From a bacterium (GTDB taxonomy: Bacteria; Patescibacteriota; Minisyncoccia; Phycocordibacterales; CAIZLB01): a stretch of DNA of 64,000 bases. The stretch is from positions 36,915 through 100,914 of the forward strand of contig JBAXAB010000001.1 in NCBI GenBank assembly GCA_037142735.1, given 5' to 3'. Every line of letters begins with the position of its first letter. Positions within the stretch are counted from its first letter, which is position 1. Shown in pieces: positions 1-9,144 of this stretch. Position numbers and translations under genes: made by a program. The notes below the pieces were generated by a model. It searched no databases. It saw nothing but the letters and a program-made list of their open reading frames with translations, and had not been told where the DNA came from.

Positions 1-1
1 T

Positions 2-135
2 CAGTTGAAAGCCGCGCTTGTTCATAAGGAGGCAGCTGAGGATCATATGAAAGAAGCTGAAGATCATATAGAAGCTGCTAAGGAAAATAACAAATTTTTG
101 GTAAAAAAAATTCATCTGGACCAAAAAATTAAATA
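2..135 (+). CDS. 3' end of an ORF truncated by the window edge. Hypothetical, charged or coiled-coil-like C-terminus (...KEAAEDHMKEAEDHIEAAKENNKFLVKKIHLDQKIK*).
   Basis: Open frame from the window edge to a TAA at 133-135. No recognisable domain. Confidence 0.3.
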
Positions 136-150
136 AGTTCAACTTTCACT

Positions 151-180
151 ACAATGCTCCAAAGGTGGGAGGATGTTCCC
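151..180. repeat. Degenerate copy of the ~40-bp cassette-boundary repeat (core GGAGGATGTTC).
   Basis: ctccaaaggtgggaggatgttccc matches the core of the repeats at 757-796 and 1286-1325. Confidence 0.5.
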
Positions 181-210
181 GATTTCTTAGCTTCGAAGAA
201 GCTGTTGAAA

Positions 211-240
211 TCGTAGTCCTCGGGAGGATGTTCGAACCTA
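211..240. repeat. Partial copy of the ~40-bp cassette-boundary repeat (gggaggatgttcgaaccta).
   Basis: The 3' two-thirds of the repeat consensus, in tandem with the copy at 151-180. Confidence 0.55.
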
Positions 241-301
241 CCTTTGCCCATAAAACACAAAGCCCACCATCAGACGACAGAGGCTCGTGTTGAGTGGTGG
301 G

Positions 302-682
302 TTATCCAATGCAAGGGCATAGGCACACAAAGAGAATGTCAGTTTCCTGATGACCAGAGGGGTCTTTCTCATATGCGCCAAAGACACCTAGAAATGTATT
401 TGCCTCTGCTGGCCAGACATCACCCATGATGGTTCCTTGGTCTGACATTTCGATGATGTTTTCCCAGTGGATGCTAGTGTAGTATTCAGAGAGTATTTTA
501 CACACTTCTTCAAGTGGTATTTTTTCTTTGAATTTAAAACGCGTAGCATCACAGAGTAAACTATCCAGAGGGTCAACCAATTCACCTACGGTGCCAGGAA
601 TGACAGGCTTGTCTTCTTCAACGGGCAACAGAGCGCCCATGAACCTTGCTAGGAGAAACTCTCCTAAAGTATGTTTGCTCAT
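302..682 (-). CDS. Hypothetical protein (126 aa), cassette gene 1.
   Basis: ORF with an AAAGGA motif 6 nt upstream of the ATG. Flanked upstream by the 757-796 repeat and downstream by the repeat copies at 151-240. No recognisable domain. Confidence 0.5.
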   Translation of the reverse strand: MSKHTLGEFLLARFMGALLPVEEDKPVIPGTVGELVDPLDSLLCDATRFKFKEKIPLEEVCKILSEYYTSIHWENIIEMSDQGTIMGDVWPAEANTFLGVFGAYEKDPSGHQETDILFVCLCPCIG

Positions 683-756
683 ATTTATCCTTTCGTTGAT
701 GTTTATGTTCTGGGGTTCAGATTAAAAATACACTTAAATTATTAAAAGTAAAGTGA

Positions 757-796
757 CGTACTACGGCTCCAAAAGTGGGACGATGTTCGAACTTAC
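757..796. repeat. ~40-bp direct repeat (cgtactacggctccaaaagtgggacgatgttcgaacttac) abutting the NUDIX stop codon.
   Basis: 37/40 identical to 1286-1325. Contains the 8-bp palindrome GTTCGAAC and a small CTCC..GGAG hairpin. Confidence 0.8.
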
Positions 797-1258
797 TTAT
801 CTCAAAGACTTTAAATAAGTATCTAAAACCTCTTTTGTGAGCACAGAGAGATTCGGGGGTAAATTGCTTATTGGAAACCATTCTGTCTTTTTAATTTCCA
901 CTCGATTAAAAATAATCTCTTTTGAATCGCTATGGCCTACAAAAACACTGACAGTGTCATGGTGATAGGAGTGGTAGACATTAACTACCCCTACATTCTT
1001 AAGTTCTGATAATTCCAACTTCAATTCCTCTTCTGTTTCTCGTCTTGCAGCATCAATAGGATTTTCATTTTCCTTTACTCCACCTCCAGGGAAATCCCAT
1101 AAACCCCTATGCATGTATGTATGTTGAATTAATAAAATACTATCTCCGTTCCTTAATATAATCTGAACACCTTGTGTATTTGGGCGAGTAATAAACCACT
1201 TCAAGTAATATACTGCGTATCCAACCTTATATAATAATCTGCCCAAAAGATTTTTCAT
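797..1258 (-). CDS. NUDIX hydrolase (MutT-like).
   Basis: Nudix box GGGVKENENPIDAARRETEEELKLEL (GX5EX7REUXEEXGU pattern). Confidence 0.85.
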   Translation of the reverse strand: MKNLLGRLLYKVGYAVYYLKWFITRPNTQGVQIILRNGDSILLIQHTYMHRGLWDFPGGGVKENENPIDAARRETEEELKLELSELKNVGVVNVYHSYHHDTVSVFVGHSDSKEIIFNRVEIKKTEWFPISNLPPNLSVLTKEVLDTYLKSLR

Positions 1259-1285
1259 TGTTGAAGTATACCAAATCTTCCTAGA

Positions 1286-1325
1286 CGTACTACGGCTCCA
1301 AAAGTGGGAGGATGTTCGAACCTAT
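1286..1325. repeat. ~40-bp direct repeat (cgtactacggctccaaaagtgggaggatgttcgaacctat) overlapping the Fic stop codon.
   Basis: Near-identical to 757-796. Sits between the Fic stop (1322) and the NUDIX start (1258). Confidence 0.8.
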
Positions 1326-2308
1326 CTACTCAATAGCATTACAATCAATCCAACAACTTGATCTTTGTCCTTCGGACTGCTCTCTGCAACAAGGAGGGTT
1401 ATAGCTGTTAAGGCTTCTGGGGTCATACGATTTGTATCAAGCACTTTTGCTTTTCTCAGAAACCAGATAAAAGAAAGGGCGCCGCTTCTTTTATTTCCAT
1501 CAGAGAATGGGTGATTTTTAACGATGAAATATAATAGATGGGCTGCTTTTTCTTCAATACTGCCATAAACATCCTTGCCACCAAAAGATTGAAATACATT
1601 ACCAATAATGCCCGCTACACTTCCTTTTTCTCTTTCTTGCGCGAAAAGTTCTGTTGCCTCGTTAAGTGATAGAAGATTTTGCTTCAAATCGAGGATCGCA
1701 TTATGTAGTTCAGAACCTGTAATGACAACTTGTCTTTTGGTTAGTTTTTTACTTTTGAACTCTGATTTGTCGTACGCATCCAAAGAAAACCATGTGCTTG
1801 CGAATAGTTTTACGAGCTCAAGGGTATCTTGATTTTTTATATTACTTTGCTCTGGTAATAAATTTCTTACCTTCTCGACTGCTGATAGGAACGAATTATA
1901 ATTATGCTGTACGCGGTTTGGATTGATAGTGTAGCCCTTGATTACATGGGATTTTAAAACTTTTGTGGCCCACTGGCGAAATCTTGTGGCTTGCTTTGAA
2001 TTTACTCTATATCCGACAGATATAATTACGTCTAGGTTGTAGCGTTCTATGCTTCGTTCTACCTTTCGCCCACCTTCAGTTTGAACTGTTGCATTTTTTG
2101 CAACAGTTGATTTTCTAGATAATTCTCCCGAACTGTAAATATCCTTGATGTGTCTTGATATAACGGATTTATCACGACCAAAAACATCGGCAATCTGATT
2201 CAAACTCGCCCATAAAGTTTCCTTGTCTGTATCAACTTGAAAGTTGATATCTCCTTTTGAGTCTTTGTATATTGCAATTTCCTTTGTCATTAGGGAATAT
2301 TGTAACAC
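1322..2308 (-). CDS. Fic/DOC family protein with an N-terminal RhuM-like DNA-binding domain.
   Basis: C-terminal Fic motif HPFSDGNKRSG (HPFx[DE]GNGR). The N-terminal ~130 aa resemble the RhuM/virulence-protein family. Confidence 0.8.
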   Translation of the reverse strand: MLQYSLMTKEIAIYKDSKGDINFQVDTDKETLWASLNQIADVFGRDKSVISRHIKDIYSSGELSRKSTVAKNATVQTEGGRKVERSIERYNLDVIISVGYRVNSKQATRFRQWATKVLKSHVIKGYTINPNRVQHNYNSFLSAVEKVRNLLPEQSNIKNQDTLELVKLFASTWFSLDAYDKSEFKSKKLTKRQVVITGSELHNAILDLKQNLLSLNEATELFAQEREKGSVAGIIGNVFQSFGGKDVYGSIEEKAAHLLYFIVKNHPFSDGNKRSGALSFIWFLRKAKVLDTNRMTPEALTAITLLVAESSPKDKDQVVGLIVMLLSR

Positions 2309-2434
2309 AAGGGGACTAAATAAAAATTAAGAAGTTATGAAAATCTAGTTTTTATAATGCTCCCCGCCTGGGGATCGTACCTAAATTGGCAAAAGGCTAT
2401 TAAATCAGTATTTTTATGCTATTATCATTCAACT

Positions 2435-3535
2435 ATGGCAAAACTTTCTATCGGAATTGTAGGGCTCCCGAATGTTGGTAAATCAACATTATTTAACGCG
2501 CTCACAAAAAAATCTGTCCCTGCAGAGAACTATCCATTTTGTACTATTGATCCATCCGTTGGAATTGTTCCAGTACCTGACGAGCGTTTATACAAATTAG
2601 CCTCATTTTCTGAAACAGAAAAAACCGTCCCGGCTGTTATTGAATTTGTTGATATCGCAGGGCTTGTTAAAGGTGCCTCTGAAGGAGAAGGTTTAGGAAA
2701 TCAATTTTTGTCCCATATTCGAGAGGTTGATGCAATTGCCGAAGTGGTTAGAATTTTTGAAGACGGAAATGTAATTCATGTTCATGGGAAAGTTGACCCT
2801 ATTAATGACATTGGTGTTATTAACCTTGAATTGATTTTAGCTGATACAGGCACTGTGACAAAACGCCTTGGCAGTCTAGAGAAAGACGTAAAAAAAGGAG
2901 ACAAACTGGCTATAAAAGAAAAAGAAGCACTCACGAAAATTGCCGAAGGCCTGGAAAATGAAAAACTAGCACGTGAAGTTAATCTGACCCCGGAAGAAAA
3001 CGAAGCGATCAAGAACCTAAGTCTTTTGACCATGAAGCCAATCATGTACATCTTGAATCGTAAGGCGGGAAGTGTAAATTTAGATGATGTGAAGGACGGT
3101 AGATTTGAAAAATTGATCGAATTCTTTAAAGAAAAAAATGCGATGTGGACAATTGTTGACGCAGGAGTTGAACATGAACTAAAAGATTTGGAAGGAGACG
3201 AGAAAGAGATGTTTCGAAAAGAATTAGGGGCAAAAGATGATGGAATTAACGCACTTATTAAAAAAGGGTACGAACTTTTGAATTTAGAAACATATTTTAC
3301 GACTGGAAAGGTAGAGACGAGGGCTTGGACTATTGCCAAAGGTTCGACTGCTCCTGTTGCTGGAATGGCAATTCACACAGACTTCAAGGAAAAGTTCATC
3401 AGAGCTGAAATAATCTTTTGGTCAGATCTTTTAAATGCAGGATCATTTGGAACTGCCAGAGAGAAGGGGTTATTGAGGACAGAAGGGAAGGATTATGTGG
3501 TAAAGGATGGAGATGTGATTGAGTTTAAGATATAA
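2435..3535 (+). CDS. ychF: Ribosome-binding ATPase YchF (Obg-family GTPase).
   Basis: MAKLSIGIVGLPNVGKSTLFNALT G1 motif, NYPFCTIDP, C-terminal TGS-like domain. Start moved to the MAKLS ATG at 2435. Confidence 0.95.
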   Translation: MAKLSIGIVGLPNVGKSTLFNALTKKSVPAENYPFCTIDPSVGIVPVPDERLYKLASFSETEKTVPAVIEFVDIAGLVKGASEGEGLGNQFLSHIREVDAIAEVVRIFEDGNVIHVHGKVDPINDIGVINLELILADTGTVTKRLGSLEKDVKKGDKLAIKEKEALTKIAEGLENEKLAREVNLTPEENEAIKNLSLLTMKPIMYILNRKAGSVNLDDVKDGRFEKLIEFFKEKNAMWTIVDAGVEHELKDLEGDEKEMFRKELGAKDDGINALIKKGYELLNLETYFTTGKVETRAWTIAKGSTAPVAGMAIHTDFKEKFIRAEIIFWSDLLNAGSFGTAREKGLLRTEGKDYVVKDGDVIEFKI

Positions 3536-3619
3536 ACTATGGAAAATAAGGGTTTTTTGCCAATTTTAATATAATACTAAAAAATACTTGACATATATTT
3601 AATATGTGCTAGGGTTTTA

Positions 3620-4215
3620 TCAGCGCGAAGGTTCTTTGAACAAAACATCTACGTATCTTGATGGCCGCGAGGTCAATCAAAGGTAAAGATGTCGAACCCT
3701 CTCCGCTCTGGTTACTCGTCCGACGTGTCGTAAACCAGTGTATGCGAAGAACAAACAGCATGTGAGTACCAAGTCAAAGGCACGCTGTTTCGCTAGGCAC
3801 AAAGATAAGTCCGGCGCACAAATGGATGCTTGTCCAAAGCTCCTACTCTATGGGTCCACAGGCGCCGTAAAGCGACATCGAATCGTCGGGAGGGGCAACG
3901 TGCTACCACCCGCTATCGAACTCGCAGCCGCCACCATCGCCGTCGCACAATGCGCGGCCGAGCATCAGAGATGGCCCAAGAAAATCTCAAGGACGAAAAC
4001 GAGCCGGGCAACCTTGAGAATGGACAGCGCTGCGGCGCAACAGGTTTCGATCAATCCCAGGTCGAAAGTGCAGGCAGTCTCGGCAGACACCGAAGCTGAA
4101 CCCGAAGTTCTTACCCGCACACCGAAGGGTACCCCGCTGTTGCGCGCCCCACGCGTGCACAGCGGGGGCCCGACGGCCTCCCACACACTGATCCCACCCC
4201 GGGGTCTTTTTTTGT
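3620..4215 (+). other. GC-rich island 1: ~600-nt segment ending in an intrinsic terminator. Candidate structured ncRNA or small-ORF cassette. Diverged paralog of the element at 18459-18860.
   Basis: Sharp GC rise versus neighbours. Extended hairpins, e.g. CCCCGCUGU..ACAGCGGGG. Conserved blocks shared with island 2 (TCGAACTC..CGCCACCA, ATGG..GACGAAAAC, GGCCCG..CCTCCCACAC). Only low-complexity overlapping ORFs. Confidence 0.4.
4193..4214 (+). terminator. Rho-independent terminator (CCCCGGGG hairpin plus a T7 run).
   Basis: acCCCGGGGtcttttttt lies immediately upstream of the leuS promoter region. Confidence 0.8.
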
Positions 4216-4267
4216 ACCTGAATTAGCGTTACTATCCATTTTTTGCTACTATTATTTTCATACTTTT

Positions 4268-6694
4268 ATGAAAAAGAAGGCCTCAAAATCTGTCTCAAAA
4301 ATCTCTTCAGTCTACGACCACTTAAAAATCGAAAAAAAGTGGCAAGCTGATTGGAAAAAATCGGGAATTTACAAAACCAAAGAGGGAGGTAAAAAGCCAA
4401 AAGCCTACGTCTTGGACATGTTTCCATATCCATCTGGTTCTGGACTTCACGTTGGGCACCCAAAGGGATACATCGCAACAGACGTATTCGCTCGTTTTAA
4501 ACGCATGTCTGGATTTAATGTTTTACATCCAATGGGTTGGGATGCGTTCGGATTACCAGCAGAGGAGTTTGCTTTAAAAAACAAAATTCATCCGAGTATA
4601 GCAGTCAAGACGAATGTAAAGTGTTATAAGGACCAACTTTCAATCCTCGGTTTCTGCTATGACTGGGATCGAGAAGTAAACACCACTGATCCTGAATACT
4701 ATAAATGGACTCAATGGGCGTTTTTACAGATGCATAAAAAAGGTTTGACGTATGAATCTCACGAACCTATCAATTGGTGTCCTTCGTGTAAAACTGGTCT
4801 TGCTAATGAAGATTTAGACAATGGAAAGTGTGAACGCTGTGGTTCAATTGTCGAAAAGAAGCCGATTCGTCAGTGGGTGATTGGCATTACAAAATATGCA
4901 GATAGACTTTTAAGTGATCTGGATGCTTTAGATTGGCCAAATTCTATTAAAGAGTCTCAGAAAAATTGGATTGGTCGTAGTGAAGGATCAGAATTAACCT
5001 TTGAAATTAAAGGTGGAGAGTCCGTCAGTGTTTTTACTACGCGTCCAGATACAATTTTTGGTGTGACATATCTTGTCCTTGCACCTGAGCATCATTTGAT
5101 TGAAAAAATAAAACCACGAATTGAAAACTGGGATAAAGTTCAGTCATTCATCAAAGACGTAGCCAAAAAAACGCAGATCGAACGAACGGCTGAGGGGAAA
5201 GAAAAAACCGGTGTACATTTATCTGGAATTTCTGCTGTGAATCCTGCGAATGGTGAAAAAGTACCCGTCTGGATTGCGGATTACGTTTTAGCAGATTACG
5301 GAACAGGTGCGGTTATGGCAGTACCGGCACATGACGAACGTGATTTTGTCTTTGCTAAAAAATATAACTTACCGATTATGGCAGTAATTGGATCCGAACA
5401 TGTGTCAGACGAAAAAGCCTACACCGGCGGTGGAACTTTGATTAATTCTGGAAAGTTTAACGGAAAAGATTCAGAATCTGTGATTAAGGAAATCACCAAA
5501 TTCTGTAATGGAAAATTAGTAGTGCGCTATAAATTACGAGACTGGGTATTTTCACGTCAGAGATACTGGGGAGAGCCGATTCCACTTGTTCACTGTGCTT
5601 CATGTGGAGTGGTGCCTGTGCCTGAAAAAGAACTTCCACTAAAACTTCCTAATGTAAAATTCTACGAACCGACAGGGACTGGAGAATCTCCTTTGGCTGC
5701 AATCGACAAATGGGTCAATACTAAATGTCCACAATGTAAGGGTCCTGCAAAACGCGAGACGAATACCATGCCTCAATGGGCTGGATCATGTTGGTATTAC
5801 CTTCGATACATGGATCCGAAAAATAAAAAGATGCTCGTGGATCCTAAAAAAGAAAAGTACTGGTCACCAGTTGATGTGTACGTTGGTGGCACCGAGCACG
5901 CAACGAGACACTTGATCTATGCAAGATTTTGGCACAAGTTTTTATATGATATTGGAGTCGTTTCCCAATCAGAACCATTTACGCAATTGCGAAATCAGGG
6001 ATTGATTATGGGACCTGATGGACAAAAAATGAGCAAGCGTTTTGGAAACGTAGTAAACCCAGATGATATTGTGAAATTATATGGAGCTGACAGTCTACGT
6101 GTATACGAAATGTTTATGGGTCCATTTGAGCAAGCGATCTCATGGAGTACTGACAACATGCTTGGTTCAAGACGATTTATTGAGCGTGTTTGGAGATTGA
6201 AACAGAAAATTTCTAAAGATTCTGTTAAAAAGGATACCGAACAACTTCTACATAAGACAATTAAAAAAGTAGGACAAGACATTCAGGGTTTTTCTCACAA
6301 TACTGCCATTTCATCAATGATGATTCTCTTAAATGCCCTAGAAAGTGAGGCTTCTGTTGATAAAAAAACGTATGAAACTCTTCTTCTTATCCTCGCTCCA
6401 TTTACTCCACATATCACTGATGATTTATGGTCTCAACTAGGACACAAAAAGAGCATACATTTGGAGGTGTGGCCTACATATGATGAATCAAAATTAATCA
6501 GTGATTCATTTAAAATAATGATCCAAGTTAATGGAAAAATACGTGGGTCACTAGAGACTAATAATCCTGAGGAAGCCTTTGTAATTAAGGCTGCAAAGGA
6601 AAAACCCGAGATTAAAAAGTATCTCGATGGTAATGAAATTATCAAGGAAATTTACGTCAAAAATAAGCTTGTCAACTTCGTCGTCAAGGGGTAA
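4268..6694 (+). CDS. leuS: Leucine--tRNA ligase.
   Basis: HIGH motif (HVGHP), KMSKS (QKMSKRFGN), CP1 editing domain, ~808 aa. Confidence 0.97.
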   Translation: MKKKASKSVSKISSVYDHLKIEKKWQADWKKSGIYKTKEGGKKPKAYVLDMFPYPSGSGLHVGHPKGYIATDVFARFKRMSGFNVLHPMGWDAFGLPAEEFALKNKIHPSIAVKTNVKCYKDQLSILGFCYDWDREVNTTDPEYYKWTQWAFLQMHKKGLTYESHEPINWCPSCKTGLANEDLDNGKCERCGSIVEKKPIRQWVIGITKYADRLLSDLDALDWPNSIKESQKNWIGRSEGSELTFEIKGGESVSVFTTRPDTIFGVTYLVLAPEHHLIEKIKPRIENWDKVQSFIKDVAKKTQIERTAEGKEKTGVHLSGISAVNPANGEKVPVWIADYVLADYGTGAVMAVPAHDERDFVFAKKYNLPIMAVIGSEHVSDEKAYTGGGTLINSGKFNGKDSESVIKEITKFCNGKLVVRYKLRDWVFSRQRYWGEPIPLVHCASCGVVPVPEKELPLKLPNVKFYEPTGTGESPLAAIDKWVNTKCPQCKGPAKRETNTMPQWAGSCWYYLRYMDPKNKKMLVDPKKEKYWSPVDVYVGGTEHATRHLIYARFWHKFLYDIGVVSQSEPFTQLRNQGLIMGPDGQKMSKRFGNVVNPDDIVKLYGADSLRVYEMFMGPFEQAISWSTDNMLGSRRFIERVWRLKQKISKDSVKKDTEQLLHKTIKKVGQDIQGFSHNTAISSMMILLNALESEASVDKKTYETLLLILAPFTPHITDDLWSQLGHKKSIHLEVWPTYDESKLISDSFKIMIQVNGKIRGSLETNNPEEAFVIKAAKEKPEIKKYLDGNEIIKEIYVKNKLVNFVVKG

Positions 6695-6757
6695 CTTGAC
6701 GGTATTCCGCATTTATGCTAAAACTAATACTAATTAAACGACAAATTAGCATATAAC

Positions 6758-7810
6758 ATGGCAATAGCAAACCTTCCATTCAAACCAAAACAGGTCACCA
6801 AGAAACTTCTTTCGTCACTGCACGAAAGAGCTCGGTTGGTTATCATAAAAAGATACGGTCTTGATAAAAATTCTGAGAGAATGACGCTTGAAGGTATCGG
6901 CCAGGACTACAATATCACTCGCGAACGTGTCCGCCAGATCGAAAATGCTGCTATTGCTAATATTCGTAAATCCTCACAATTCAGAGAAGAGGCCGCTTCT
7001 TTCTTGGCTCTTGAAACATTGATCCGTGACCTTGGTTCATTAATTTCAGAAGAAGATTTATTGAATCATCTTGCGAAAGATCCTTCTACAAAGAATCATT
7101 TCCATTTCATGCTCACTGTTGGTCTAACATTTAAAAAAGAACGCGAAGACGAAGAGTTTAAACACCGATGGCACGTTGATCCTGAATTAACTAAAAGAAT
7201 TCACGAAGCACTTAGAAAACTTTACAAATCTCTTTCAAATGATGACCTTGTTCCAGAATCTGAAATGATTCAGATGTTTTTCGATAACTTAAAAGACATT
7301 AATGACAAGTACAAGAGCGATGAAGTGTCCAAACGATGGTTACGCATTTCAAAACACATTGATAAGAATCCATTGGGTGAATGGGGCAAGACAAGTTCGC
7401 CAAATGTAAAGACAAAAGGCATCAGAGACTTTGCTTTTTTGGCTATGCGAAAACATGGTTCTCCAATCCACTTCCGAGACATTGCAAAATTGATCGAAAA
7501 ACTTTTCAACAAGAAAGCGCACATCGCAACGACTCATAATGAACTGATCAAGGATAAACGATTCGTCTTAGTTGGACGAGGTTTATATGCATTGGCAGAA
7601 TGGGGATACCTCAGTGGTGTTGTAAAGGATGTTATAAAGAAAGTTCTAGACAAACACGGTCCACTTCCAAAGGATGAAATCATTCAAAAAGTTTTAAAGG
7701 AAAGATTTGTAAAAGAAAACACTATCCTCGTTAACTTACAGAACAACAAATTCTTCAAAAAGGACAAAGATGGACGTTACCACATGGTAGATTTCACTGC
7801 TACTAAATAA
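6758..7810 (+). CDS. Sigma-70 region 4 domain protein with a C-terminal HARE-HTH domain.
   Basis: N-terminal region-4.2-like GIGQDYNITRERVRQIENAAIANIRK. C-terminal HARE-HTH signature FVLVGRGLYALAEWGY. Confidence 0.8.
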   Translation: MAIANLPFKPKQVTKKLLSSLHERARLVIIKRYGLDKNSERMTLEGIGQDYNITRERVRQIENAAIANIRKSSQFREEAASFLALETLIRDLGSLISEEDLLNHLAKDPSTKNHFHFMLTVGLTFKKEREDEEFKHRWHVDPELTKRIHEALRKLYKSLSNDDLVPESEMIQMFFDNLKDINDKYKSDEVSKRWLRISKHIDKNPLGEWGKTSSPNVKTKGIRDFAFLAMRKHGSPIHFRDIAKLIEKLFNKKAHIATTHNELIKDKRFVLVGRGLYALAEWGYLSGVVKDVIKKVLDKHGPLPKDEIIQKVLKERFVKENTILVNLQNNKFFKKDKDGRYHMVDFTATK

Positions 7811-7851
7811 TCGACTAGTATTTTCATACACAGTAAGTTAAAATACTACTG

Positions 7852-9144
7852 ATGTATCTTGCTCTCATTCAATCTTCACTTGGGCCAGCTTTCACCTTTA
7901 TCTATTTGGTTGCTATTATCGCGATACCAATAGTGTTGTTTTTTGAACTTAATAAGAAATGGCAGAAATACCTACATGCTTATTATTTTAACAAACAAAC
8001 ATACACAGTTCTTGAATTAAAGATTCCAAAAAACAATACCAAATCACCACTTGCCATGGAGATTTTTCTTAATGCCCTTCAACAACCAGGAAAGGATTAC
8101 GAATGGAGAAAAAAATGGTGGACAGGAGAGGTTCGTGCCTGGTTCTCGCTAGAGATATGTTCGTTCGAAGGTAATGTACGTTTTTTTATATGGACAAAAA
8201 CAAAATATAAAGATTTACTAGAGAACCAGTTGTATTCTCAGTATCCAGATATTGAAATTAGTGACGTCGGCGCGCGTGACTATACGTACAACATACCCTT
8301 TGATGAAAGTAAGTATGAATACTGGGCTACCGAATGGAGAAAAAGAGAGCCTTCTCACTTACCTATAAAAACCTACATGGCTTTTGGACTTCAAGATGAT
8401 CCAAAAGAAGAATTTAGAATCGATCCAATTACACCACTTTTTGAATTTTTAGGATCACTGAAAAAAGGAGAACAGGTATGGTATCAAATTTGTGTCCGAG
8501 CACACGGAAAGGACAAATTTGATAAGGGAAAAGGTGCCTACGTTGACTGGAAGCACGCTGCTCAGAAGGATGTGTTGAAACTGACAAAACGAGATGCTCC
8601 TAATAAAGATGATAAATTTAATTTCATCATTTTGACCAAGGGTGAAAAACAAGCAGCGGATGCAATTGAAGACAACATTACAAAAGCAGCTTTCGATGTC
8701 GGAATTCGTGTTATCTATGCGGCAGAGAAAAGTGTATATCAAAAAAGTACCGTAGGTCGTATTAAAGCTTCGTTTAACCAGTTCAATGCCCCGAATTTGA
8801 ATAGTTTTGCTCGTGTGAATGACATTGACGATGACAAGTGGCGTTACCATTACTTACCATTCGGAAACAAGAGACTTTCTCGTCATAAAAAAAGACTTTT
8901 CGATCTTTATCGGCACCGATCGTTCTTTTATAGAGACTTTGTTCCGTATCCTCACAAAGAGGAAGAATTGATTTCGAACTTCTGGGTTTCAGATATAACA
9001 ACATGGTTTGATTCAAAAATCACCACATTCAGTGCTGAAGAGCTAGCAACTATTTACCACTTCCCAGGAGAAGTCGCAAAGACGCCAAGTGTAAACCGTG
9101 TGACTGCCAAGAAAGCCGAACCACCATCAAACTTACCTCAATAA
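7852..9144 (+). CDS. Hypothetical membrane-anchored protein (430 aa).
   Basis: N-terminal TM helix, Trp/Lys-rich, no recognisable catalytic motif. Directly downstream of the sigma-r4/HARE-HTH gene. Confidence 0.65.
   Translation: MYLALIQSSLGPAFTFIYLVAIIAIPIVLFFELNKKWQKYLHAYYFNKQTYTVLELKIPKNNTKSPLAMEIFLNALQQPGKDYEWRKKWWTGEVRAWFSLEICSFEGNVRFFIWTKTKYKDLLENQLYSQYPDIEISDVGARDYTYNIPFDESKYEYWATEWRKREPSHLPIKTYMAFGLQDDPKEEFRIDPITPLFEFLGSLKKGEQVWYQICVRAHGKDKFDKGKGAYVDWKHAAQKDVLKLTKRDAPNKDDKFNFIILTKGEKQAADAIEDNITKAAFDVGIRVIYAAEKSVYQKSTVGRIKASFNQFNAPNLNSFARVNDIDDDKWRYHYLPFGNKRLSRHKKRLFDLYRHRSFFYRDFVPYPHKEEELISNFWVSDITTWFDSKITTFSAEELATIYHFPGEVAKTPSVNRVTAKKAEPPSNLPQ

Follow-up and report, generated by a model that had tools for sequence, protein, structure and literature searches.

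Results

A short array of single-gene cassettes at the left end of the window

The stretch of DNA analysed here (the window) is 64 kb of the bacterial contig JBAXAB010000001.1, whose lineage appears to be Paceibacteria/Parcubacteria-like, judging from the named relatives of its YchF protein (74-77% identity). At its left end, positions 137-2397 form a short chromosomal array in which three single-gene cassettes are set between conserved, co-oriented DNA junction elements, a layout that is integron-like yet lacks both integron recombination sites and a linked integrase. The original prediction had described this locus as a cassette-like array of three minus-strand genes (Fic/RhuM, NUDIX and an orphan) in which a fixed boundary element separates unrelated small genes; the genes were borne out by gene calls and by Pfam and NCBIfam, and the array itself is supported by the results below. 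The features are as follows, in window coordinates.

1-136, plus strand: 3' end of a convergent gene for a 126-aa protein, which bounds the array from outside and lies within a segment that is variable between relatives
137-243, minus strand: J3, the long-form junction that closes the array (nhmmer matches at 152-178, E 1.3e-9, and 222-243, E 5e-6); its parts, in gene-strand order, are the GTTCGAAC box (230-237), hairpin 1 CCTCCCGAGG (218-227), hairpin 2 CGATTTC...GAAATCG (180-213), the core GAACATCCTCCCACCTTTGGAGC (156-178), ATT-GTAG and a degenerate second box GTTGAAC (137-143)
252-301, minus strand: terminator module of cassette 3, a CCCACCA...TGGTGGG hairpin plus a T-run
302-682, minus strand: cassette 3 gene, a 126-aa orphan with its own Shine-Dalgarno leader
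766-798, minus strand: J2, short-form junction, AAGTAA-GTTCGAAC-ATCGTCCCAC-TTTTGGAGC, with an extension CGTAGTACGTC to 755 (nhmmer E 5.2e-13)
797-1258, minus strand: cassette 2 gene, a NUDIX hydrolase of 153 aa (Pfam NUDIX 3.1e-20)
1259-1294, minus strand: right-hand module of J1, CGTAGTACGTCTAGGAAGATT plus an extended -10 box TGGTATACT (1265-1273), 6 nt and the NUDIX ATG (1256-1258)
1295-1327, minus strand: J1, short-form junction, gene strand AGATAG-GTTCGAAC-ATCCTCCCAC-TTTTGGAGC (nhmmer E 2.7e-13, 45 bits)
1322-2290, minus strand: cassette 1 gene, a RhuM-N/Fic-DOC protein of 322 aa from the ATG at 2290 (alternative GTG at 2308)
2299-2307, minus strand: extended -10 box of the Fic gene, TGTTACAAT, 8 nt ahead of the ATG
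2360-2386, minus strand: TAGGTACGA-TCCCCAGGCGGGGAGC-ATTATA, a low-confidence candidate for a degenerate proximal copy, lying between the Fic promoter and that of ychF

The repeats that separate these genes are real and occur far above chance. With three mismatches allowed, a 31-mer was found at just two sites in 64 kb (0 expected from shuffles), and the 19-mer GGGAGGATGTTCGAACCTA at three sites in the window versus 0.02 expected. The identity of 37 out of 40 positions first noticed between 757-796 and 1286-1325 was reproduced, with 0 such pairs in shuffles, and J2 and J1 were 95% identical over 41 nt. When the window was searched with an nhmmer profile made from 89 unique copies from other loci, four significant matches were obtained, all of them on the minus strand between 151 and 1329 (E 2.7e-13 to 5e-6), and the rest of the 64 kb gave nothing above 8.3 bits. 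The neighbourhood was extended on the source contig (ENA ERZ27300101 k141_330149, 128 kb, in whose numbering the window is 37,001-101,000), so that 81.5 kb were examined in total (27,797-109,310), and the further 17.5 kb contained no additional motif copy. The four significant copies in the 64 kb thus lie clustered and unidirectional within 1.2 kb, a distribution at odds with the dispersed REP-like (repetitive extragenic palindromic) element that had been named as the alternative to be checked.

The placement of the elements was also as predicted. The repeat ends 27 nt ahead of the NUDIX start at J1 and 74 nt ahead of the orphan start at J2; the Fic stop codon TAG falls inside the J1 motif, at positions -3 to -1, and the NUDIX stop codon TAA at positions -7 to -5 of J2, that is, 4 nt ahead of the GTTCGAAC box. 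The motif does contain the CTCC/GGAG inverted repeat and the GTTCGAAC palindrome. Two details had to be amended. The stretches 151-180 and 211-240, taken at first for two partial copies, belong together as the opposite ends of one long-form element, J3, in which ~52 nt holding the small hairpin CCTCCCGAGG and a 7+6-bp hairpin are inserted between GTTCGAAC and ATCCTCCCACC; such long forms recur elsewhere, with 76-93% identity, in L005 (twice), L009, L023, L026 and L040 (loci are cited by L numbers throughout). Compensatory variants of hairpin 1 (CCTC/GAGG, CCTT/AAGG and CCG/CGG) were seen by eye in the alignment, the RNAalifold tally being 0 compensated pairs; hairpin 2 is conserved, and the J3 long form has a DNA fold z of -2.9. 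Moreover, the array ends within the window: according to the gene calls on the source contig, the convergent 126-aa gene is followed by yceG and housekeeping genes.

The protein encoded by cassette 1 matched the Pfam models Virulence_RhuM (6.5e-25) and Fic (2.4e-11), as well as the NCBIfam model DOC_P1 under its cut-off, and the cassette 3 orphan had no match in Pfam or NCBIfam. A homolog of the Fic protein in L018 (90% aa identity) has a canonical junction motif ahead of its gene. Fic homologs with 65-75% identity occur in five other contigs of the candidate phyla radiation (CPR) that do not have the motif, and the idea that the motif is tied to Fic was rejected. In L055 (9521-11843), a Fic/RhuM homolog (69% aa identity) was observed between infC and rpmI, within the normally contiguous infC-rpmI-rplT operon of a CPR genome and with no junction motif. 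The candidate copy at 2360-2386 agrees with the motif by eye at ~22 of 33 positions, with a 3-nt gap, and its hairpin is kept with another sequence; it was not picked up by the nhmmer profile.

The junction motif is conserved across CPR lineages

In the window, the motif is an asymmetric unit of ~34 nt that reads, on the gene (minus) strand, A-N5-GTTCGAAC-ATCNTCCCAC-NTTTGGAGC. When its variants are included, the gene strand becomes AAAYAR-GTTCGAAC-ATC[C/G/A]TCCCAC[C/T/G]TTTGGAGC. In the 27-position core, compared over 104 unique copies, 23 positions keep the same base in 97 copies or more, and the A at -6 never varies; J1 agrees with this consensus. The motif was carried by 48 other public loci, which belong to freshwater Paceibacteria-like metagenome-assembled genomes (MAGs) and to Saccharibacteria. 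A pattern with 21 specified bases was found at 16 loci of the GTDB one-per-species genomes, against a calculated chance expectation of ~0.3, and a 20-base pattern at 32 metagenome loci. All 16 genome records are MAGs, five of them titled Saccharibacteria, one Nomurabacteria and one 'Patescibacteria group', the others being named just 'bacterium'. Between the phylum-level CPR lineages (Saccharibacteria versus Paceibacteria-like) the motif is ~90% identical and the flanks are unrelated.

Several identities were considered for the motif and set aside. With 0 matches to the motif in viral contigs, phage records and plasmid records, carriage by phages or plasmids was rejected. A coding function was rejected too, because a distance of 7 nt between the two variable positions leaves no codon periodicity. 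A sigma-54 or extracytoplasmic function (ECF) promoter within the motif was discarded by eye, since neither its spacing nor the invariant bases suit such a promoter, whose -10 element would fall outside the conserved block. No Rfam match was found over the 64 kb at the gathering threshold, nor at E <= 1 on 1-4400 and six related loci, nor at E <= 10 on 120-1340. A full-text literature search that included the motif sequence turned up neither the motif nor CPR cassette arrays, although its coverage was incomplete and an earlier description is possible; a paper on hypervariation in Gracilibacteria was considered as a precedent and dismissed because it concerns an unrelated coding repeat.

Arrays contain one ORF per interval and varied cargo

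The arrangement of the window is repeated in the other loci. Long contigs had a single array each (JANOAN 70.2-77.0 kb; Ga0194051_1000017 2.3-5.7 kb; JACCDR 31.5-34.5 kb; CAZUCU 15.6-17.1 kb), and the largest array comprised nine copies in 5 kb (L029, allowing <=5 mismatches). Orientation was uniform, as 143 of the 146 profile matches agreed with the rest of their own locus and the three exceptions were chance-level matches below 9 bits. Among the 69 inter-motif intervals, 65 had one dominant open reading frame (ORF), typically of 300-1200 nt, forward in 53 and reverse in 12; two intervals were empty.

The 67 cassette proteins fell into 50 families. A Pfam domain was present in only ~11 of the 47 families scanned (NUDIX, RhuM/Fic, NYN, GrpB, HD_4, Ser_hydrolase, SRPBCC, EamA, UbiA and two DUFs), and about three quarters had none. 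The suggestion that the cargo is of the defence or addiction type was thus sustained weakly, by the few cassette families that matched candidate defence models, and not by the majority, which are without a known domain. NUDIX cassettes were also found in L004, L033, L045 and L047. Cassettes with an NYN domain (PIN-like nuclease) were likewise observed to recur beside the motif (L014 6252-6749, L007 3-341, L005 1016-1648 and L023 654-1286), in Saccharibacteria and freshwater arrays alike.

Cassettes change neighbours at the motif and the locus varies between relatives

Exchange of neighbours was analysed by clustering the left (74 nt) and right (73 nt) flanks of 101 junctions, which resolved into 88 junction types. 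Four cassette ends were each joined to 2-4 different downstream cassettes, and eight cassette starts to 2-4 different upstream ones; in every case, identity ended at the motif. A cupin cassette ending in ...ACAGAAGAA, for example, was followed by four different cassettes (L004, L021, L037 and L039). Another example is the terminator module of cassette 3, which is ~90% identical to the end of another cassette, with a 158-aa ORF, in L006, L039 and L046; these add three further right-hand neighbours, four different ones in all. Several of the contigs with exchanged junctions come from a single lake sample series (Ga0194051), and their differences suggest heterogeneity within a population or community.

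Cassette content also differed between relatives and between contigs, the variation that had been proposed as a check. Three relatives of the window locus were found through YchF. One of them (L054, GFS_7744, YchF 93% identical) is collinear with the window from ychF to position 2397 and again from yceG, and between these two points a single gene for an unrelated 141-aa membrane protein replaces the Fic-NUDIX-orphan cassettes together with the convergent 126-aa gene, which is absent there. This membrane-protein gene is preceded by a remnant, GAGCATTG-GACAAAAAC, that corresponds to the 3' end of the motif plus a common right-flank class and occupies the same relative position as window 2360-2386, the candidate copy that starts 11 nt inside the synteny break. 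In L005 and L023 the arrays again lie beside a yceG homolog, with different cassette numbers, and in L049 and L031 beside fmt/hpf. As arrays adjoin yceG in some loci and fmt/hpf in others, there is no universal platform gene.

A different kind of insertion was observed in the relative L053 (GCA_043718245.1, YchF 89% identical), where a large serine recombinase of 549 aa with Resolvase and Recombinase domains (6090-7924), an HTH_17 gene and a primase-polymerase/AAA_25 gene lie directly upstream of a 5'-truncated ychF (320 versus 366 aa). The insert looks like an integrative element that uses ychF as its attachment site; its position in ychF itself makes this neighbourhood, in which the window has its array, a hot spot.

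Homologs of the cassette 3 orphan formed only three clusters among 5.8 billion proteins. In one of them (L063 9832-10552, 69% aa identity), the gene is part of a 630-bp single-gene insertion with promoter, gene and terminator, bordered by a direct repeat of 43 nt (79% identical) whose sequence overlaps the region from the T-loop to the 3' end of tRNA-Gly(UCC). Nucleotide similarity between L063 and the window is confined to the orphan ORF. The occurrence of the same cargo as a discrete unit with another boundary repeat fits the notion that small self-expressing cassettes are mobile units in CPR bacteria. In L063, the AAA ATPase gene next to this insertion is bounded by repeats of a second family, GACTGARGCCTCCGCATAGGGGT, and the repeats of this locus look like a different cassette-boundary system in another CPR lineage.

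Cassettes have the layout of self-contained expression units

Each cassette has the layout of a self-contained expression unit, with its own predicted promoter, one ORF and a stop codon or intrinsic terminator abutting the next junction. In 30 of 92 unique right flanks, TGnTAnAnT was followed by an ATG within 4-9 nt (0.4 expected from shuffles), mostly at a fixed distance of +21 after the motif. The right-hand module of J1, a putative promoter for a leaderless mRNA, was found ahead of unrelated ORFs in 11 loci (L004, L006, L024, L027, L029, L033, L034, L037, L045, L047 and L051), and other junctions had their own -10 or Shine-Dalgarno elements. The alternative that the repeat is a shared terminator/promoter module was therefore partly upheld as regards the promoter, for J1 and for the 30 unique junctions elsewhere in which an extended -10 box precedes the next ATG. 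A consensus promoter/terminator scan of 1-2600, which demands a -35 box, performed no better than on shuffles.

The geometry of the extended -10 boxes would imply leaderless mRNAs. The boxes of the Fic and NUDIX genes, TGTTACAAT and TGGTATACT, lie 6-8 nt before the ATG without a Shine-Dalgarno sequence, and similar arrangements in many related loci suggest that leaderless mRNAs may be common for the accessory genes of the window lineage.

On the other side of the motif, 45 of 96 unique left flanks had a T-run within 35 nt, and in the window lineage the upstream cassette commonly ends with a GC hairpin plus a T-run directly before AAATAG-GTTCGAAC. The order of the modules depends on the lineage. 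In freshwater loci the upstream terminator is followed by the motif and then by the downstream promoter; in Saccharibacteria the motif comes before the intrinsic terminator, which is followed by TTAGTAGAAG-TTCGAACC (a second TTCGAA box) and the promoter. Since the motif precedes the terminator in one lineage and follows it in the other, a fixed role at the RNA level is unlikely, and a role at the DNA level is favoured. The short form folds like shuffled sequences (single-strand DNA fold z +0.74 to -2.1; gene-strand z +0.7 to -0.8), and no covariation was detected in its 104 copies, in which the 4-bp stem is essentially invariant. A closing stem between the A-rich 5' flank and CCACCTTT, prompted by the long-form fold, was rejected, as pairing frequencies equalled expectation in the 104 copies.

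Other non-coding blocks in the region

Two non-coding blocks near the array were also observed. One lies just outside the window, beyond its left end and between yceG and the 126-aa gene (L001 11530-11700); it is rich in GC and in hairpins, ends in a T-run and has an 81% match within the cassette array of L030 (2795-2889). It could represent a further shared module or a small structured RNA. On the right, the ychF-leuS interval contains a block of ~600 nt (window 3585-4215, plus strand) with up to 63% GC versus ~38% around it, which begins after a TTGACA-like box and ends with a terminator made up of CCCCGGGG plus T7. It has no convincing ORF and no Rfam, tRNA or transfer-messenger RNA (tmRNA) match; its RNA fold z was -2.6 on the plus strand and -0.8 on the minus strand, and small protein genes take its place in L052 and L053. 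Foreign DNA is one possibility, a structured RNA not described so far another.

Discussion

A recombination site for an unlinked recombinase?

The explanation to which we commit ourselves, tentatively and at somewhat less than even chances, is that the motif is the recombination site of an integron-like cassette system served by an unlinked recombinase. The ~34-bp motif would be the site at which cassettes are gained, lost and reordered, and the recombinase acting on it, most likely a tyrosine recombinase of the Xer-like type, would be encoded at another place in the genome. This enzyme would excise a cassette together with one copy of the site and reinsert it at another copy, and the asymmetry of the site would keep all sites in a single orientation. 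The strongest argument is that an asymmetric sequence of 27-34 nt is conserved across phyla and kept in strict single orientation, which points to sequence-specific recognition by a conserved factor. The data show the anatomy of the arrays, their uniform orientation and clustering, the conservation across phyla, the exchange of neighbours at the motif and the variability of the locus in a close relative; that the exchange is enzymatic and site-specific instead of RecA-mediated, which enzyme performs it and where the crossover falls is what we infer from these patterns.

Several results weigh against this explanation. Pfam annotations over the source contig (27,797-109,310) included no integrase, resolvase or transposase, so that the original remark that no integrase was visible still holds. 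The sole recombinase seen near any array (1 of ~25) was a Xer-like protein of 308 aa (CAZUCU010000004.1), encoded 2.5 kb away from the array of L014, in Saccharibacteria, and divergently to it; this protein matched Phage_integrase (1e-22), scored 48.9 against a cut-off of 265 with the integron-integrase model and remained far under the XerC/D cut-offs. With only one of ~25 arrays having a recombinase nearby, a linkage between motif and recombinase was rejected. A tblastn search with this L014 protein found nothing in the window or the other loci, and a Pfam scan of six flanking ORFs (L014 and L016) revealed no other recombinase. Neither an excised circle nor a precise empty site was observed. 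The polymorphisms of the motif (positions 11, 18 and -5 to -1) segregate cleanly with neither neighbour, and no fixed crossover was mapped. In addition, a 45-nt promoter module and a ~50-nt terminator module are common to different ORFs; since these flanking modules are shared, breakpoints must also lie outside the motif, as homologous recombination would give. Finally, the window has only three cassettes, and its Fic and YchF genes have diverged from those of relatives to a similar extent (~80% nt identity); its array may be old and inactive.

These observations bring forward the main rival, which we consider unlikely, though a serious contender: the motif would be a repeat similar to REP/BIME (bacterial interspersed mosaic element) or BOX elements, with a function in expression or insulation (terminator-promoter punctuation, or the site of a nucleoid or regulatory protein), and shuffling would be passive, mediated by RecA between identical repeats of 34-80 bp, perhaps after natural transformation, with no dedicated recombinase. 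It gains from the failure to find an enzyme and from the sharing of modules beyond the motif, which extends the homology available for exchange, as well as from the BOX-like modularity of short and long forms with optional hairpins, the conserved GTAG after the hairpin and the lack of a fixed crossover. Yet REP-like elements are dispersed in both orientations, whereas here each contig has one array in one orientation; a homology anchor or an insulator does not need ~90% identity between Saccharibacteria and Paceibacteria-like bacteria amid differing flanks; the short form is neither a palindrome nor folded; and the position of the motif relative to the terminator varies by lineage. A function of the motif as RNA is improbable. 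It would belong to a 3'-untranslated region or a 5' leader, or be a small RNA, and would serve for processing, for stabilisation or, through pairing of CCUCC with GGAG, as a mimic of the anti-Shine-Dalgarno; the array would be an operon-like string of genes that share a signal. The motif is indeed co-oriented with 53 of 65 cassette ORFs, contains a CUCC-N7-GGAG hairpin and, in Saccharibacteria, would be transcribed between stop codon and terminator, and hairpin 1 of the long form covaries by eye (RNAalifold tally 0); but Rfam has no match for it, the short form shows neither folding beyond shuffles nor covariation, in the window lineage its position between terminator and next promoter probably leaves it poorly transcribed, and the exchange of neighbours at the motif would be left unexplained.

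Very improbable, in our judgement, is that the junctions are att scars left by successive integrations of elements that carry or depend on an integrase, at a site derived from a tRNA gene, as in tandem islands or tycheposon arrays, with the motif as a decayed tRNA fragment. The opposite strand does contain CTCCAAA, similar to the anticodon loop of tRNA-Trp, and the T-loop-like TTCGAAC; the orphan homolog of L063 is truly a one-gene insertion at a tRNA gene; and in L008 and L013 tRNA genes lie 0.65-1.2 kb upstream of the motif. The latter tRNAs, however, lack the motif sequence; ARAGORN with default settings found 0 tRNAs in the 64-kb window and in L001, relaxed settings yielding only noise (65 'genes' in 20 kb), and the Rfam tRNA model was blank at the motifs (E <= 10 on 1.2 kb). 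Manual parsing of both strands gave no cloverleaf, the would-be stems being not complementary and the spacing 2-3 nt short, and a tRNA or tmRNA origin was set aside on these grounds as one of low probability. Nor does the motif have the acceptor 3' end usual in tRNA att repeats, and the 69 inter-motif intervals (67 predicted proteins) encoded no integrase.

Returning to the motif as a site for an unlinked recombinase, the broader claim, which we put forward a shade more cautiously, would be that CPR/Patescibacteria possess a gene-cassette capture system of their own, an independently built analogue of the integron with a site of ~34 bp and modular long forms, an unlinked recombinase and a leaderless promoter supplied by the junction; the window would contain a three-cassette example of it. 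CPR genomes are tiny, and little is understood of the ways in which accessory genes enter them and are exchanged. If true, such a system would explain the hypervariable islands of CPR genomes, the break-up of their assemblies at these loci and the passage of orphan genes from one lineage to another. The motif would then provide a sequence tag for harvesting CPR accessory genes from metagenomes, much as attC-targeted PCR does for integrons, and a junction with a predicted built-in leaderless promoter would make, together with its recombinase, a compact candidate part for engineering, now that some CPR bacteria are genetically tractable. Should the motif be merely a passive intergenic repeat, it would still be a useful marker of variable regions in CPR genomes.

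Comparison with known systems

Short conserved intergenic elements after stop codons, with optional hairpins, GTAG and a possible use as recombination substrates, are also found among REP/BIME and BOX elements. Those are dispersed genome-wide in both orientations, palindromic and species-specific, and they do not delimit exchangeable single genes; the junction elements are not REP-like because their copies are clustered and unidirectional in the contigs examined. The REP sequences of RAYT/Y1 systems (REP-associated tyrosine transposases) are imperfect palindromes headed by GTAG; in the motif GTAG is present, but 3' of a weak 4-bp hairpin, the short form does not fold, and there was no Y1_Tnp gene in the 81.5 kb. 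Islands at tRNA genes (tycheposon arrays) and the integrative mobile elements exploiting Xer (IMEX) and pdif modules resemble the arrays in holding cargo between direct repeats of 28-45 bp that are recombination sites, and their recombinase (Xer) can be encoded elsewhere; the orphan relative in the tRNA-Gly insertion of L063 is a further parallel to the islands. In contrast to these, the array of the window has no tRNA gene and its units are single small genes without an integrase. The motif lacks the 11-6-11 symmetry of dif, and pdif sites alternate in orientation whereas all sites here are direct repeats; as the GC skew also has the same sign on both sides of the window array, an association with dif, Ter or ori was rejected.

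The closest likeness is with sedentary chromosomal integrons and with CALINs (clusters of attC sites lacking integron-integrases). In an integron, the tyrosine recombinase IntI, with its IntI-specific insertion, is encoded next to the array and divergently from it, and attC sites are conserved in structure, with paired R''/R' core sites and L''/L' with extrahelical bases. The differences are clear. The boundary described here is 34 nt long and conserved in sequence across phyla, against an attC that is a folded imperfect palindrome of 57-141 nt. There is no RYYYAAC/GTTRRRY pair, the only AAC/GTT lying inside one palindromic TTCGAA box; the TTCGAAC box fits the AAC and two of the four degenerate positions of RYYYAAC, with no downstream GTT box before the next ATG, and a second TTCGAA-like box, at most suggestive of a pair, occurs 80-105 nt away in the long form and in the Saccharibacteria form. 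An attC identity, which the original prediction had entertained, was accordingly discarded on length, fold and core sites, the short form being conserved in sequence and not in structure and having no second, inverted core site. No IntI was present in any DNA that we fetched; the cassettes carry predicted promoters, often supplied by the junction, whereas integron cassettes are mostly promoterless and depend on the common promoter Pc; and the hosts are CPR bacteria. The absence of IntI and of attC structure, together with the promoters of the cassettes, therefore places the system outside the integron family, just as it is not REP-like, dif-like, a tRNA-island array or an Rfam RNA. In its architecture, nevertheless, it resembles the sedentary integrons and CALINs: each region has one array, made mostly of single-ORF cassettes whose cargo is mostly of unknown function; boundary sites have one orientation, and the ORFs are mostly co-oriented with a minority reversed; boundary repeats are near identical within a lineage, as are the Vibrio cholerae repeats (VCRs) of Vibrio; stop codons often lie in the boundary element; CALINs are likewise without an adjacent integrase; and relatives, like contigs, differ in which cassettes they have and in what order, the breakpoints falling at the boundary sites.

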